IMG/VR virus record: IMGVR_UViG_2718217867_000003
Coordinates: 1-48,357 of that record
DNA from: a virus
Lineage: Duplodnaviria; Heunggongvirae; Uroviricota; Caudoviricetes
Strand: one strand, 5' to 3'
Length of the DNA: 48,357 nt
In this document: in pieces, positions 1 to 48,357 of the stretch
Numbering within the stretch: the first letter of the stretch is position 1
Layout of the letters: every line of letters begins with the position of its first letter
Made by a program: the position numbers and the translations under genes
Notes under the pieces: model-generated
The model's database searches: none
Told to the model about the DNA's origin: nothing
The model's input: only the letters and a program-made list of their open reading frames with translations

Positions 1-212
1 CACAACATCCGAGGACAGCATCGTCCGCTGGCCCACAGAAGTCCGGAAAGTCATGGAAGGTCGTTGTTGGGAGGAGGTACAAATTCTCTCATGCAAAAAA
101 TACGTAAAATCGATAATAGCTGGAAATAATTCAATACATGCACTCTCGAAAGTGCATCAGCCAACCGCAGAACGTTATTGCATACAACGTTTCTGCGGCA
201 TAATCCCAATGA

Positions 213-797
213 TTACTCCCTGACAGGGTTCGTAGGCCACTCAATATCAGGTGCAGTTGATGTATCAACACGGTTCAGCAACACCCGATACTTTTTCCAG
301 GCTTCCAGCAATGAGGTTTCTTCCTCCGTTGCAATTTCCAGATCTGCAGCATCCTGAAGCGGCGCAATATGCTCACTGGCTGCCTGCATCAGGCTGTTTT
401 TTGTTTCTTCCGCCTCCCGGATCCGGAACAGTTTTTCTGCTTCCGTATCCTTCACCCAGGCTGTGCCGTTCCACTTCTGAAACTCCCCTTCCGGGGATAA
501 CCAGGTGACATTTTCCGGTAATGAGCCGAGTTCAGAAATAAATAACGCGTCGCCGGAAGCCACGTCATAAACCGTTTTACCCCGATGATCTTCAACGAGA
601 TGCCACGATGCCTCATCACTGTTGAAAACAGCCACGAAGCCAGCCGGAATATCTGGCGGTGCAATATAGGTACTGTTTGCTGGCAGACCTGTATGAGGCG
701 GAATATATGCGTCACCTTCACCAATAAATTCATTAGTTCCGGCCAGCAGATTATAAATTTTTATGGTCCGTGGTTGTTCACTCATTCTGAATGCCAT
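213..797 (-). CDS. tfa: tail fiber assembly protein (lambda Tfa-like)
   Basis: 194-aa ORF; sequence recalled as near-identical to phage lambda Tfa ([24 protein letters not shown]...); start overlaps stf stop. Confidence 0.85.
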
Positions 798-3712
798 TAT
801 GCAAGCCTCACAATATAGTTAAATGCGATGTTTTTGACAGTGTTTTCCGCGTTACCAGCAGCGTTAACGGTGATGGTGTGTCCATGTGAGCCAATCGCAA
901 CCGAGTGCGTATGAGCACCAATACCGACAGTATGTGCGTGTGCACCTGCAGATGCAGCTGTGCCGCTGACACTATGAGTGTGCGCTCCTGCAGCACTTGT
1001 ATTCACACTGGCCGCAGACACTACCTTATGTACTGACCCATTTTGTGACCACTGGCTGACTGCTGATGCGCCTGTGACACTATGAGTATGGTTTCCGGCA
1101 CTTGCGGCTGTACCGCTCACACTGTGCGTATGCGCCCCGGTGTTATTCGTGGATTTAGTGCCGTAATCAAACGACGATGTGGTTTTCGTCCCCAAATCCG
1201 TACTGGATGCGCTGGCGCTGTGGGTGTGCGATTTAATGCCGTCCTGTTCCTGAGACAATACGGCCCGACCACTGGCAGGTTTGCCCTTAATCGTCCAGCC
1301 ACGCATATCAGGGATCACGCCTGACGGATAAGCGGTTGCAAGTTTCGGGTAAGCAGATTTGTCAAAAGTCTGCCCCTGCATCAGGGCATAACCAGACGGA
1401 ACGGTATCTGATGGCCACGGGATTGGTGCGCCAGGCGGATAAAACTGCTCTGATGGCGTATAGAGTGAATAAACTGTACCGTCCGTTAACCCTTCCGGCT
1501 TATTAGCAGAATATGCTGGTGACGTATGAATAGTCACGCTGGCATTACTGGTATAATCCCATTGAATATTTACACCAGTCGCATAATTTCCGATTGCAAC
1601 GTAAATATCGTAAGTATCACCAGATGTATTGACCCAGGCAAAATTTGTAAACCCTGTCGATGTGCGCTGCCATAAAGCACCAGTAATCCCCTTCGGATTA
1701 CCATTACCTGCACGCAAAACAAGTTCAGATATACCTGCCTGTTGAGGTGACCCCACGTTAAATCCCGCGCCACCAATCAACGTAATTGAAACAACAGAAC
1801 TCGCCTGTGGCATGGTTACCGTTGCTAATTTGAACCAACCAGCACCACCGCTGAATGACATTGTTGTTGAGTTAAGCGTACCAATATCTTTCGGCGTCAG
1901 TGTTATATCCGCTGAAAGCGCCTTACCATTCACCTTACGGGCAGAAGGTACCCGACCATTCGCATTATCATTAGCTGCTTTCACTGCTTTCGGTGTCGCG
2001 GCAAGCGTTTCAGATGCGCTGTTGGTTACACTACTGAGCTGGATAATTCCTTTTTGTGCTGTCGTAGCGTCCTGAGCGGTATATTTCCCGTTAGCAAGGT
2101 CATAGGCTGCCTTTACCGACTTTGGCGTTGCCGCCAGCATTTCAGATGTGCTGTTGGTCGCGCTGCTGAGCTGAACTATCCCTTTCTGTGCTGTCGTTGC
2201 ATCCTGTGCGGTGTATTTCCCGTTAGCCAGGTCATACGCGGCCTTAACTGCTTTTGGCGTTGCCGCCAGTGACTCGGAAGTGCTGTTAGTCGCACTGCTG
2301 AGCTGTACTATCCCCTTTTTCGTCGTGCTCGCATCTTCAAGCGCCACGGCGGATGCAATATCCTCTGCCCGTTTTGCCGCTGTCTCGGCGCGCGTTGCCG
2401 CGGATTCCGCCGTACTTTTGCTCTGAGCTGCCGCCGTCGCACTGCCAGCTGCCTCTGTCGCCTTCGTGGATGCCGTCGTGGCGCTGCTCTTCGCTGCTGA
2501 CGCTTGTCTGGTCGCCTCATCTTTTGAAGCAGACGCAGATGATGCCGATGACGCCGCCGAACTGGCTGACGATGCGGCAGCAGTTTTTGAGGATTCTGCG
2601 CTGGTTTCCGACGCTTTCGCGTTCGTTTCGGATGTCTTCGCTGCGGAAGCAGAACTCGCTGCTGCGCTGGCCTGTTCAGTGGCTTCGCCAGCCTTCGTTG
2701 TGGCTGTTGAAGCAGACGATGCGGCACTTTCTGCCGACTTTCCGGCAGCGGTGGCACTGGCTGAGGCCTGCCCGGCACTTGTTGACGCGGCGCTGGCAGA
2801 TGATGCAGCCGCTGTTTTTGAGTCTGCGCCTGCGGAGGCACTCTGTGCTGCTGCCGTTTCAGAGGACTTAGCGTTTGTCTCAGACGTCTTTGCCGCCTTC
2901 GCGGAATTTCCTGCCGCCGTTGCCGAGGAAGCGGCATTACTGGCGCTCGAGGCTGCGCTCGTTTCTGATGATTTTGCCGCCTCTTTTGAAGCCGACGCAT
3001 CCCGGGCTGAAGTGGCTGCTTCTGACGCTTTCGTGGTCGCGGTGGATGCAGAAGTGGCTGCTGATTGTTCTGACGCTGCGGCATTCGTTTCTGACGTTTT
3101 CGCCGCACCGGCACTGGTAGCTGCCACGCTTTTTGAGGACTCTGCAGCGGCAGCACTTTTTGAGGCTTCAGTGGCCTTTGTTGATGCCGTTCCTGCGCTG
3201 GAAGACGCTGACTGAGCCGACGAAGCGGCCTGTCCGGCTGACGTGCTGGCTGCACGTGCTGAATCTGCAGCATCAGTCGCATGGGTTGCCGCCTCACGGG
3301 CAGATGTGCTGGCATCACTGGCTGACTTCTTCGCGGCTGCCGTGTTCTGTGCCACCACGGACGCGTTACGCGCCACCTCTTCCACCATCAGTTCAAAACG
3401 GCGCAGTGCCTCAGGACGGGCATCATCCTCCGTCATGGCACCGAGAAAATCATTCAGCGTACCGGGTCGGGAATCTTCATACACGGTGATGGTCCCGGCA
3501 TGTGACGGCGGGAATCCTTCCACCAACAGAATAACGCTGTACTGACCGTACTCAACGTCCATGCTGTAACGCCCGGCTTCATCCGGATTTTCTGAGGCCA
3601 GCGTGTTCACCACCACCGTGGTGCTGTTACGTTTTGCTTTCAGCTGGATTGTGCAGTTCTGTACCGGTTTTCCTGTGCCGTCTTTCAGTACACCTGAAAT
3701 CTTTACTGCCAT
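797..3712 (-). CDS. stf: side tail fiber protein (lambda Stf-like, expanded repeat region)
   Basis: N-terminus [26 protein letters not shown] matches recalled lambda Stf; long Ala/Ser/Thr-rich region; three tandem ~39-aa repeats; His-rich C-terminal HxH repeats; start placed at third codon ATG which has a better SD than the track start at 3718. Confidence 0.85.
1960..2320 (-). repeat. three tandem ~117-bp coding repeats inside stf ([37 protein letters not shown] units)
   Basis: near-identical DNA units visible at about 1960-2076, 2077-2193 and 2194-2310; protein shows the 39-aa unit three times. Confidence 0.7.
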
Positions 3713-3723
3713 ATTCACCCCAC

Positions 3724-46826: not shown

Positions 46827-46904
46827 AACTTCATAGCTGATTATTAATAATCAACATCGGGCGTCAATTTCAGTCTAACATTGGCGCCTGCCAGAGGTGA
46901 TGCG

Positions 46905-47120
46905 ATGGCACAAGTAATCTTTAATGAAGAGTGGATGGTTGAATACGGCCTGATGCTTCGCACTGGTCTGGGGGCCAGACAAATTGAAGCATACCGCCAG
47001 AACTGTTGGGTGGAGGGCTTCCACTTCAAACGAGTATCTCCTTTAGGTAAGCCAGACAGCAAACGAGGGATTATCTGGTACAACTATCCAAAGATAAATC
47101 AGTTTATCAAAGACTCATGA
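46905..47120 (+). CDS. xisR: excisionase
   Basis: 71 aa from ATG with AGAGGTGA SD; immediately upstream of integrase. Confidence 0.8.
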
Positions 47121-47121
47121 T

Positions 47122-48357
47122 ATGTCTAAATTACCAACAGGTGTCGAGATTAGAGGTAGATACATTCGCATCTGGTTCATGTTTCGAGGAAAACGATGTC
47201 GGGAAACATTAAAAGGCTGGGAGATTACAAACAGTAATATTAAAAAGGCCGGAAATTTAAGAGCGCTGATAGTTCATGAAATAAACTCCGGTGAATTTGA
47301 GTATTTAAGACGTTTTCCCCAGTCCAGCACTGGGGCAAAAATGGTGACAACGAGAGTCATAAAAACGTTCGGAGAGCTTTGTGATATCTGGACAAAAATT
47401 AAAGAGACAGAGTTAACAACAAACACAATGAAGAAAACGAAATCACAATTAAAAACACTCAGAATAATAATTTGTGAAAGTACCCCGATATCACATATTC
47501 GTTATAGCGATATCTTAAACTACCGGAATGAACTGCTGCATGGAGAAACGCTTTACCTAGATAATCCAAGATCCAACAAAAAAGGAAGAACCGTGCGCAC
47601 AGTTGATAACTATATCGCCCTGCTCTGTTCGCTGTTGCGTTTTGCGTATCAGTCGGGATTTATATCAACCAAACCATTTGAAGGAGTAAAAAAATTACAG
47701 CGAAACAGAATAAAGCCTGATCCGTTATCTAAAACAGAATTCAATGCATTAATGGAAAGTGAAAAAGGACAGAGCCAGAACTTGTGGAAATTTGCCGTTT
47801 ACTCAGGACTTCGTCACGGGGAACTGGCAGCTCTGGCGTGGGAGGATGTGGATCTCGAAAAGGGAATAGTGAATGTCAGAAGAAACCTGACGATACTTGA
47901 TATGTTCGGTCCCCCAAAAACAAATGCCGGGATCCGAACAGTAACACTACTGCAGCCTGCTCTTGAAGCACTGAAGGAGCAATACAAACTGACCGGGCAT
48001 CATCGCAAAAGCGAAATCACCTTTTATCATCGGGAGTACGGCAGAACCGAAAAGCAAAAACTGCATTTTGTTTTCATGCCCAGGGTGTGTAACGGAAAAC
48101 AAAAACCTTATTACTCGGTAAGCAGTTTGGGGGCAAGGTGGAATGCAGCAGTAAAACGTGCTGGTATTCGCCGCCGTAATCCGTACCATACGCGGCATAC
48201 TTTTGCCTGCTGGCTGTTGACGGCAGGAGCGAACCCGGCATTTATAGCCAGCCAAATGGGGCATGAAACTGCGCAGATGGTGTATGAAATTTACGGTATG
48301 TGGATTGATGACATGAACGACGAACAGATAGCCATGTTGAATGCGCGGTTATCGTAG
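47122..48357 (+). CDS. intR: tyrosine integrase
   Basis: 411-aa ORF with C-terminal R..HxxR..Y catalytic signature (NPYHTRHTFA...EIYGMW); ends at window edge. Confidence 0.9.
   Translation: MSKLPTGVEIRGRYIRIWFMFRGKRCRETLKGWEITNSNIKKAGNLRALIVHEINSGEFEYLRRFPQSSTGAKMVTTRVIKTFGELCDIWTKIKETELTTNTMKKTKSQLKTLRIIICESTPISHIRYSDILNYRNELLHGETLYLDNPRSNKKGRTVRTVDNYIALLCSLLRFAYQSGFISTKPFEGVKKLQRNRIKPDPLSKTEFNALMESEKGQSQNLWKFAVYSGLRHGELAALAWEDVDLEKGIVNVRRNLTILDMFGPPKTNAGIRTVTLLQPALEALKEQYKLTGHHRKSEITFYHREYGRTEKQKLHFVFMPRVCNGKQKPYYSVSSLGARWNAAVKRAGIRRRNPYHTRHTFACWLLTAGANPAFIASQMGHETAQMVYEIYGMWIDDMNDEQIAMLNARLS

Follow-up and report, generated by a model that had tools for sequence, protein, structure and literature searches.

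Full-size and active relatives of the Rac prophage have been described in several settings, namely Sp10 and CP-933R in O157:H7 (PMC4632033), the LT-II toxin-encoding Rac-like prophages such as Rac-SA53 (Jobling; PMC5917428), and KingRac, a 46.8-kb Rac-like prophage at ttcA of the mouse E. coli IGC_RcoliRes_1.1 (PMC6731689). KingRac responds weakly to mitomycin C, produces tailed particles and took the place of K-12 Rac in the mouse gut (PMC6731689), and K-12 Rac itself, which has the same Int and Xis as the DNA studied here, still excises (PMC4632033). Here we analyze IMG/VR record IMGVR_UViG_2718217867_000003, positions 1 to 48,357 (the window, by which we mean this whole 48,357-bp stretch), and read it, with a probability of about 85%, as the body of a single full-size Rac-type lambdoid prophage in ttcA whose lesions affect accessory genes only. 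Full-size Rac-type prophages are a known and common kind in E. coli, and the window is one more mosaic member of this group.

The window is prophage DNA throughout and ends at gene borders, in that its base 1 is the first base past sitD in the closest relatives and its final base belongs to the intR stop codon. No genome in our collection of 5,426 complete E. coli genomes, to which all counts given here refer, is identical to it. The best match for the right part is KK19-02 (98.9% across window positions 18000-48357, in a single piece) and for the left part S42 (98.0% across 1-28295, also in a single piece). Both are finished chromosomes carrying one such prophage each, between ttcA-dbpA-zntB on the integrase side and sitDCBA-uspF-ompN on the tail-fibre side, which is the chromosomal position of Rac in K-12; in KK19-02, intR abuts ttcA, followed by dbpA and zntB. 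The order of modules is canonical for a lambdoid phage, running from int-xis through recombination and host-killing, immunity, replication, a nin-like segment with a Q-like gene, lysis, packaging, head and tail to the tail fibres. That this is a Rac-type prophage, as the first-pass annotation had proposed, is upheld by IntR and XisR proteins identical to those of K-12 and by the shared ttcA-side junction in near-identical relatives.

The prophage extends past both ends of the window, leaving outside it both att sites and probably a segment of ~3.8 kb with sitABCD, so that the span 1-48357 first given for the element is prophage in its entirety but not its full extent. Rac-like prophages integrate in the 5' end of ttcA, with duplication of a 26-bp core. 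This att core, TTGTTCAGGTTGTATTGTTCTTTCTT, present in K-12 in ttcA and in the ttcC pseudogene, is found about 60-100 bp past intR in KK19-02, and a second copy lies between uspF and sitA in S42. In both strains the sitABCD iron/manganese transporter operon (3.4 kb) sits inside the att-bounded element, to the left of base 1, between the ttcC-like att copy and tfaR (loci L002 2149-6000 and L004 6603-10052). Prophages differ in this place: beyond tfaR, sitABCD in S42 and KK19-02 corresponds to pinR-ynaE-ynaM in K-12 Rac and to 1.7 kb with no annotated gene in KingRac. Because window positions 1-999 are identical to the S42 sequence downstream of sitD, the source strain should share the S42 arrangement, and judging from these letters sitABCD very probably lies within its prophage, left of the window, for a whole element of ~52.3 kb.

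The comparison with K-12 was made by blastn of the window against MG1655 positions 1406000-1438000 (K-12 Rac being NC_000913.3 1411899-1434958), and protein identities were obtained by tblastn of the K-12 proteins against the window. The left early arm contains the following features, with amino acid identities to K-12:

40902-41036, plus strand: ydaG, 98-100%
41047-41202, plus strand: ydaF, 98-100%
41199-41687, minus strand: sieB, 98-100%
42129-42350, plus strand: kilR, 98-100%
42350-42520, plus strand: ydaE, 98-100%
42595-42870, plus strand: racC, 98-100%
42972-45571, plus strand: recE, split into reading frames 42972-43610 (Pfam Exonuc_VIII) and 43652-45571 (PDDEXK domain)
45564-46373, plus strand: recT, 98.6-100%
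46430-46624, plus strand: ralR, 98.6-100%
46617-46826, plus strand: rcbA, 98.6-100%
46623-46801, strand opposite ralR and rcbA: RalA antitoxin small RNA (Rfam RF02694, 224 bits)
46905-47120, plus strand: xisR, 100%
47122-48357, plus strand: intR, 100%

The Rac early-left operon kilR-ydaE-racC-recE-recT-ralR(/RalA)-rcbA, plus sieB, is present at 98-100% amino acid identity to K-12, and the arm from ydaG to intR (40739-48357) is 99.80% identical in DNA, with 13 substitutions and two single-base indels. IntR, XisR, RalR, RacC, YdaF, YdaG and YdaV are 100% identical to their K-12 counterparts, and values for the others are 99.6% for RecT, 99.4% for SieB and for TrkG, 98.6% for KilR and 94.3% for YdaT. 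The likeness to K-12 Rac that the first-pass annotation had noted for int, xis, ralR, recT, racC, kilR, sieB, ydaT and trkG is therefore real (94.3-100% amino acid identity), and recE, named along with them, is present but split by a 1-bp deletion. Outside the left arm, DNA identity to K-12 is 92.5% for ydaT, 95.7% for ydaW, ydaV and the 3' half of ydaU, 97.9% for part of Rz with trkG and ynaK, 99.7% for ydaY and ynaA, 98.1% for lomR, and 90.6-95.3% for stfR and tfaR; YnaK matches a ParB-like protein of the window at 98.8% over 86 residues.

What K-12 lacks falls into three segments. The first corresponds to window positions 4175-12523 (8.3 kb, from the tape-measure C-terminus through J to lom), the second to 14284-25840 (11.6 kb, including the chaperone, tube, connector, head, portal and terminase genes and a glycosyltransferase gene, up to the middle of the ParB-like gene, with the joint at 25840/25841), and the third to 28265-37350 (9.1 kb, from the Rz N-terminus through lysozyme, holin, Q module, cargo and DUF977 to the middle of ydaW). 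At all three joints the flanking K-12 coordinates are adjacent, for a total loss of 29.0 kb, and the K-12 genes ydaW, rzpR, ynaK, ydaY, ynaA and lomR are thus deletion stumps; ydaY and ynaA are fragments of the chaperone and tape-measure genes. K-12 Rac further has an IS5 in lomR, the RacR/YdaS immunity cassette, and pinR-ynaE-ynaM beyond tfaR. K-12 Rac is, by this alignment, the architecture of the window minus three clean internal deletions, plus IS5 and a different immunity cassette. The two share the RalA small RNA, trkG and ydaT, and K-12 retains fragments of ydaW, Rz, ParB, chaperone, tape measure, lom, stf and tfa in the same order, but the N-terminus of its replication initiator is unlike that of the window. 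The whole-prophage alignment that the first-pass annotation had suggested as a check thus identifies the early genes as Rac orthologues, and attributes the absence of late modules in K-12 to the three deletions.

In the window, the packaging, head and tail genes are as follows:

213-797, minus strand: TfaR tail fibre assembly protein (Pfam Caudo_TAP; full length against S42)
797-3712, minus strand: Stf side tail fibre (Pfam phage_tail_N, Phage_fiber_2, Collar; full length against S42)
3777-4376, minus strand: Lom (Pfam Ail_Lom; full length)
4443-7841, minus strand: J (Pfam GpJ domains; full length)
7902-8549, minus strand: I (Pfam Lambda_tail_I; full length)
8447-9190, minus strand: K (Pfam JAB and NlpC/P60; full length)
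9196-9894, minus strand: L (Pfam Phage_tail_L; full length)
9894-10232, minus strand: M (Pfam Phage_min_tail; full length)
10225-13458, minus strand: tape measure (Pfam TMP_2, TMP_4, Tape_meas_lam_C)
13624-14291, minus strand: tail assembly chaperones G/GT (phrog_313, phrog_1189; Phage_TAC_18 sub-threshold, 21.2 bits with a cutoff of 27)
14442-15404, minus strand: tail tube (Pfam Phage_tube_2; full length)
15431-15823, minus strand: tail terminator (Pfam; full length)
15820-16200, minus strand: Neck1 (PHROG connector family; full length)
16201-16584, minus strand: head closure Hc1 (PHROG connector family; full length)
16584-16979, minus strand: adaptor Ad1 (PHROG connector family; full length)
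16983-17159, minus strand: 58-aa protein (full length)
17202-18341, minus strand: P22-type major capsid protein (Pfam; full length)
18440-19204, minus strand: DUF6651 protein (Pfam; full length), a putative scaffold by position
19309-20421, minus strand: MuF-like minor head protein (Pfam; full length)
20405-21811, minus strand: DUF4055 portal (Pfam; full length)
21814-23115, minus strand: TerL, T4-type Terminase_6N/6C (Pfam; full length)
23096-24190 and 24194-24403, minus strand: TerS and a 69-aa protein (Pfam, phrog_309; full length)

The lysis, Q-region and replication genes lie between these and the immunity region:

27827-28291, minus strand: Rz, with embedded Rz1 lipoprotein at 27886-28071 (Pfam and translations; full length)
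28288-28821, minus strand: SAR-type lysozyme, 177 aa (Pfam and translation)
29165-29509, minus strand: YdfR/DUF1327 (Pfam)
29514-29729, minus strand: S21-family class II holin, 71 aa (PF04971, 120.9 bits, end to end)
31862-31960, minus strand: conserved ~60 bp downstream of the Q-like gene, plus hairpin (from sequence)
31964-32506, minus strand: Q-like DUF1133 protein (Pfam; full length)
32503-32793, minus strand: YbcO (Pfam; full length)
32793-33392, minus strand: IrsA/DUF1367 (Pfam; full length)
36619-37023, minus strand: DUF977 (Pfam and PHROG)
37081-37800, minus strand: DUF1627/YdaW, stopped 13 codons early (Pfam and PHROG)
37823-38569, minus strand: DnaC-like YdaV (100% amino acid identity to K-12)
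38576-39364, minus strand: O-like replication initiator (PHROG 2509, end to end)
39442-39864, minus strand: YdaT, in the CII position (94.3% amino acid identity to K-12)

Completeness was assessed by aligning to the window 56 proteins annotated in S42 and KK19-02. Fifty-two of them map from first to last residue without a stop, and ParB maps to 260 of its 263 residues, also without a stop, owing to a 3-bp indel near the C-terminus; only recE, a nuclease-KAP NTPase gene and ydaW are frameshifted or stopped. No truncation is seen in any of the 23 morphogenesis genes, in the genes for lysis and replication, in the Q-like gene or in int/xis, whose identity to their relatives is 93-100% except for Rz (83%), and the structural half shows no homopolymer-type errors. 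The full terminase, portal and capsid genes of the first-pass annotation are present by Pfam and PHROG matches and as long as in annotated relatives, and among the genes that lytic growth is expected to require, none shows a visible defect. In the chaperone gene, a slippery heptamer A_AAA_AAG (-1) at 13944 is in frame, four codons before the stop, and the -1 frame is open beyond it.

The tail had been called lambda-like, which is correct for its distal genes from M to Tfa but not for the tube, the connector and the head, which are of another type, the head being closest to HK639. Similarity to lambda-like phages (2H10, PhiR29_2) stops at 9916, inside gene M, and GC content, 0.55-0.61 in the tail-tip region, falls to 0.43 past 10 kb, the step lying at ~9900-10230; this stretch marks where a lambda-type tail tip has been joined by recombination to a tail shaft and head of another kind. 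The portal, MuF protein, scaffold, major capsid and following small protein are found in the same order in HK639 (NC_016158), at 50-75% amino acid identity, whereas the terminase, connector, tube, early, immunity, integrase and lysis genes of the two are unrelated or only distantly related, and because the terminase is not shared, neither packaging type nor capacity can be deduced from HK639.

The lysis cassette was also predicted well, as an S21-type holin, a SAR-like lysozyme and Rz with embedded Rz1 are all in place. The holin begins with a MKSMDK dual start, and the lysozyme has a Gly/Ala/Ser-rich N-terminal SAR-like segment and an E-8-D-5-T triad. In its class II dual-start holin, its SAR-like lysozyme with a triad of T4-lysozyme type, and its Rz/Rz1 spanins, the window resembles the pinholin/SAR-endolysin system of phage 21, from which it differs by a DUF1327 (YdfR) gene between holin and endolysin; by its sequence features, a cassette of the phage 21 type is complete in the window.

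The Q antiterminator is present as a DUF1133 protein, though its Phage_antitermQ match (PF06530) barely reaches the threshold, at 26.0 bits with a cutoff of 26. The DUF1133-YbcO-DUF1367 trio was labelled q/ybcO/irsA by the depositors of MN652886 and Rac-SA53, and NCBIfam returned nothing for Q, nor for the initiator, the glycosyltransferase, the DUF2441 protein or the capsid. Just downstream of the Q-like gene, the segment 31900-31960 is found in 1,102 genomes and the rest of the Q-to-holin insert is rare; next to it, a perfect CCACC-TTTA-GGTGG hairpin at 31862-31890 is flanked by A7 and T7 runs, and no clear -35/-10 was identified in this region. Positions 31862-31960 are likely a late promoter and terminator (qut-like) region. 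The replication initiator shares its C-terminal 124 residues with YdaU at 81%, and its N-terminus is unrelated. A search of the initiator gene for iterons yielded one 22-bp palindrome present twice (TTGTAACGC...GCGTTACA), at 39184-39205 in the 5' part of the gene and at 39376-39397 in the ydaT-initiator spacer, and nothing more; these copies are candidate origin or regulator binding sites.

Among described relatives, KingRac, found next to ttcA in NZ_CP054662.1 (locus L011), aligns over 16.2 kb of the window, with int-xis at 99.4%, and shares ydaT, ydaV, DUF1627, DUF977, irsA-ybcO-DUF1133, the class II holin-ydfR-lysozyme-Rz genes and a lambda-type tail tip. It differs in having lambda-type cos packaging and head genes (Nu1/A-like terminase, S49 protease, decoration protein) and a lambda V/U/G/T tail shaft, as well as Red gam-bet-exo beside a short recE, YdaS-family immunity, a Rha regulator, four tRNAs and no trkG; no tRNA gene was found anywhere in the window. 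Rac-SA53 (KU052037) shares the ttcA att site, intR, recET, kilR, DicA/DicC-type immunity, ydaT/U/V/W and irsA-ybcO-q, and carries cargo in the same two slots, Q-to-holin and endolysin-to-terS. Only 32% of window positions 24001-48357, however, align to it, at 91% identity, and it has another lysis cassette, annotated baseplate-type tail genes (which we read as myovirus-like), and toxin cargo in place of DUF2441 and trkG. Rac-type early modules are, in other words, combined with several unrelated virion types.

A second prophage of the KingRac host, at yebY/pphA (NZ_CP054662.1 2290-2332 kb), carries Rac-like kilR, ydaE, a recE fragment, ralR, ydaT, ydaV and irsA-ybcO-DUF1133, along with baseplate-type (contractile-tail-like) structural genes and an ATPase plus STAS-like pair in the DUF977-irsA slot. 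This element (L009) was considered as KingRac and rejected, being another Rac-related prophage, since KingRac lies beside ttcA.

At least 80% of window positions 1-24000 is found in one place in 660 of the 5,426 genomes, and at least 80% of the more variable half, 24001-48357, in nine. The combination of cargo in the window is rare, with the nuclease-KAP NTPase gene in seven genomes and the Q-to-holin insert in five. The ON470xxx "phage" records, although best matches, are in-silico prophage predictions and were not counted as evidence of induced phages.

The immunity region is not shared with K-12, and it contains:

39861-40115, minus strand: Cro-like HTH protein, 84 aa, at the ydaS position
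40195-40614, plus strand: DicA-like repressor, 139 aa, at the racR position
40131, 40155 and 40188: operator-like TGWAC-N5-GTWCA sites between these divergent genes
40691 and 40715: operator-like TGWAC-N5-GTWCA sites just downstream of the repressor gene, overlapping a PL-like promoter

By blastn, positions 39870-40739 have no nucleotide match in K-12. The repressor shares only a 33-residue HTH patch with RacR, and the Cro-like protein only an 18-residue patch with YdaS, so that the racR and ydaS of the first-pass annotation have no orthologues here, and DicA-like and Cro-like genes stand in their place. The repressor is 30% identical, over its full length, to the DicA-type repressor of another "phage Rac" record, and its best NCBIfam model is DicA (NF007257), at 56 bits, below the cutoff; Pfam shows HTH_3/HTH_31 only, and an S24 peptidase autocleavage domain is absent. 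The PL-like promoter near the 40691 and 40715 sites (TTTACA-N19-TATATA) faces the early-left operon, and homology to K-12 restarts directly after the last operator-like site. Allowing at most one mismatch, TGWAC-N5-GTWCA occurs 12 times in the window against 3.95 expected, and five of these 12, including all three exact ones, are in the immunity region. Positions 39861-40740 represent a classical immunity-cassette swap, and the cassette seems self-consistent, with operator sets that match on the two sides of the repressor gene. The same RefSeq accessions for repressor and Cro-like protein are annotated in KK19-02 and VTB97379v, and in ATCC 8739 the Cro-like protein is the same and the repressor, listed under another accession, nearly identical. 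Immunity varies among published Rac-like prophages too, with DicA/DicC in Rac-SA53 and MN652886, and RacR/YdaS is for this reason to be seen as the K-12 allele and not as a requirement of the family. With such a cassette, the prophage is predicted to be heteroimmune to K-12 Rac.

Repressors of the DicA/RacR/GfoR group are not cleaved, and in Gifsy phages are inactivated by antirepressors, induction being driven by a LexA-controlled dinI-antirepressor-irsA operon (PMC3121763). The window resembles the Gifsy type in its short HTH-only DicA-class repressor, its early-left operon with recE and recT, and the placing of irsA (DUF1367) before the late regulator, but only irsA represents the dinI-antirepressor-irsA SOS operon. 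No dinI or Rem homologue was found in the window. A relaxed search for LexA boxes returned three one-mismatch sites, of which the one near kilR (42047) is unconvincing. An 85-aa reading frame at the rem position (33592-33849) was tried as an antirepressor and rejected, as it does not resemble Rem and matches nothing in Pfam or PADLOC; it is probably non-coding.

If the prophage works as its genes suggest, lysogeny would be held by the DicA-like, non-cleavable HTH repressor bound to the five TGWAC-N5-GTWCA sites flanking its gene, and derepression would probably come about through an antirepressor or another signal instead of RecA-stimulated self-cleavage. Once derepressed, the operon of Cro-like protein, YdaT, initiator and YdaV would be transcribed through to the Q-like protein, which would allow late transcription to read past the terminator downstream of its gene into the S21 pinholin, SAR endolysin and Rz-Rz1 genes, and to continue through trkG, the headful-type terminase, the HK639-like head and the lambda-like tail-tip genes.

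The lesions can be explained in two ways. In recE, one T is lost from a run at ~43592-43596 (T5 instead of T6), a frameshift allele found in none of the 1,474 genomes with that segment, and the nuclease-KAP NTPase gene has 1-bp deletions at 34925 and 35153, which none of the seven genomes with the gene share; ydaW/DUF1627 ends 13 codons early at a nonsense codon (37078-37080). All three frameshifts are single-base deletions in A or T runs of at least 5 bases, and four of the five indel events relative to KK19-02 (34925, 35153, 43592 and 31289) are single-base changes in A/T-run length, three of which break genes and are private to the window. Homopolymer miscalls in long-read or flow-based assemblies typically look like this, and because all three frameshifts are A/T-run deletions, sequencing error is no less likely than real decay. 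We thus lean slightly towards recE and the nuclease-KAP NTPase gene being intact in the organism, while recognizing that homopolymers are also natural slippage hot spots, that the ydaW nonsense substitution cannot be a homopolymer error, and that the structural half is free of such errors. Whatever their origin, the lesions in recE, the nuclease-KAP NTPase gene and ydaW hit accessory genes. Lambda red provides an analogy for recE-type genes being unneeded in lytic growth, and on this analogy lytic growth is not expected to need them. The KingRac ydaW homologue also has an internal stop (locus L011 37835-38596), which suggests that ydaW is dispensable.

Several points weigh against a full-size prophage with damage limited to accessory genes. 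The att core does not occur within the window, which ends with the intR stop codon; the three frameshifts and the nonsense codon amount to some decay or sequencing error; completeness was judged by length and stops, to which missense defects are invisible; and the identity of Q rests on a threshold-level Pfam match, position and depositors' labels. The LexA box CTGT-N8-ACAG has no match in the window, and no antirepressor was recognised in it. The head and packaging genes of KingRac, being lambda-type with cos, do not vouch for the head module of the window, and at ~52.3 kb with sitABCD, compared to 49.6 kb for HK639, the element could exceed a headful. As there is no S24 domain, no LexA box and no recognised antirepressor, the sequence does not predict a response to mitomycin C; that the prophage is inducible is plausible from its gene content, and induction may be weak, need an antirepressor from another prophage, or answer another signal.

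The same points feed an alternative for the element as a whole, to which we give a little less than even odds, namely that the prophage is defective although its gene set looks complete, and no longer gives infectious phage, perhaps because of missense damage, a genome too large for a headful capsid, or a repressor that is never released. The ydaW nonsense codon and the frameshifts in recE and the KAP NTPase gene, which are private to the window, suggest relaxed selection, no link to the SOS response was found, the size exceeds that of HK639 with its related head, and the response of KingRac itself to mitomycin C is weak (PMC6731689). Yet every gene for morphogenesis (23), lysis (four) and replication, along with the Q-like gene and int/xis, retains its full length and is closely similar to its relatives, 660 genomes keep this structural module nearly intact, and the damaged genes are accessory, KingRac still making particles with a stop in its ydaW homologue (PMC6731689). 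Balancing these, we consider it about an even chance that the prophage yields infectious particles.

The cargo genes of this prophage, and a gene pair upstream of terS, are placed as follows:

24381-25313, minus strand: TET-associated-type glycosyltransferase (TAGT; PF20691, 118.8 bits)
25306-26094, minus strand: ParB/Srx N-domain protein (PF02195), of which K-12 ynaK is the 5' stump
26232-27689, minus strand: trkG potassium transporter cargo gene, between lysis cassette and packaging genes (PF02386, 482 bits; GC 0.39)
29946-30458, plus strand: DUF2441 cargo reading frame, 170 aa, in the Q-to-holin slot (homologues carry PF10386)
34071-36519, plus strand: HSDR_N nuclease plus KAP-like P-loop NTPase cargo gene, 816 aa when intact (alignment to KK19-02; Pfam on the intact homologue)

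The Q-to-holin insert (29740-31960), at least 80% of which is present in only 5 of 5,426 genomes, includes ~1.5 kb of AT-rich unannotated DNA with four plus-strand hairpin-plus-T-run terminators ~150 bp apart (30962, 31101, 31258 and 31411). Rfam gave only sub-threshold matches in this region, such as an STnc100-like one at 31570-31758 (26.8 bits, cutoff 47), and small RNA genes in the insert are possible. On the window as a whole, Rfam reported the RalA small RNA and an "IS009" motif (RF02111, 226 bits) at 256-454 on the minus strand, wholly within the tfaR coding sequence, which is probably a family modelled on a conserved prophage gene segment and not a separate RNA gene. The nuclease-KAP NTPase gene, found in 7 of 5,426 genomes, lies in the DUF977-irsA slot (33393-36620), a variable cargo/defence islet across relatives (loci L007 9120-12513 and L008 8798-11992) that holds IteA/IteS in VTB97379v, an annotated ATP-dependent nuclease (OLD-like in our reading) with a cytosine methyltransferase and Hok in ATCC 8739, and hok/mok/rem in other Rac-like records. 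PADLOC gave weak or partial matches only for the nuclease-NTPase and other cargo reading frames.

The commonest neighbours of phage 5-methylpyrimidine dioxygenases are reported to be ParB, glycosyltransferases and terminases (2026 paper, PMC13229309), and in the window the ParB and TAGT pair sits directly upstream of terS, with no TET/JBP-type dioxygenase among the reading frames scanned. It is conceivable, but in our opinion unlikely, that the pair forms a DNA- or protein-modification module without a TET/JBP dioxygenase and, separately, that the prophage is a live converting phage moving sitABCD, trkG and the nuclease-KAP NTPase gene, as a defence candidate, from strain to strain; if the former were true, Rac-type virions would carry a so far undescribed modification. 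Lastly, a chimera in which a Rac remnant is joined to the late genes of an unrelated phage, through the adjacency of two prophages or through misassembly, might be suspected from the strong mosaicism, the GC step at ~10 kb and the different best-matching genomes of the two halves, but is extremely improbable given that the overlapping KK19-02 and S42 matches are each one piece of the same single prophage between ttcA and sitD, that K-12 keeps fragments of every module in the same order, and that there is a single integrase.

As a full-size Rac-type prophage, the window provides a sequence-level account of how the K-12 Rac fossil arose from a lambdoid phage of ~52 kb, through three deletions, an IS5 insertion and an exchange of immunity genes, and its structural module is shown to be widespread in E. 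coli. Its practical value is modest, and current understanding is unchanged. Three cargo slots, Q-to-holin, Rz-to-terS and DUF977-to-irsA, carry fitness, toxin or defence genes in different strains, and a virulence-associated transporter, sitABCD, may ride on the prophage as well. If active, such a prophage would be heteroimmune to K-12 Rac and, like KingRac, could replace Rac in laboratory strains, and might spread sitABCD.

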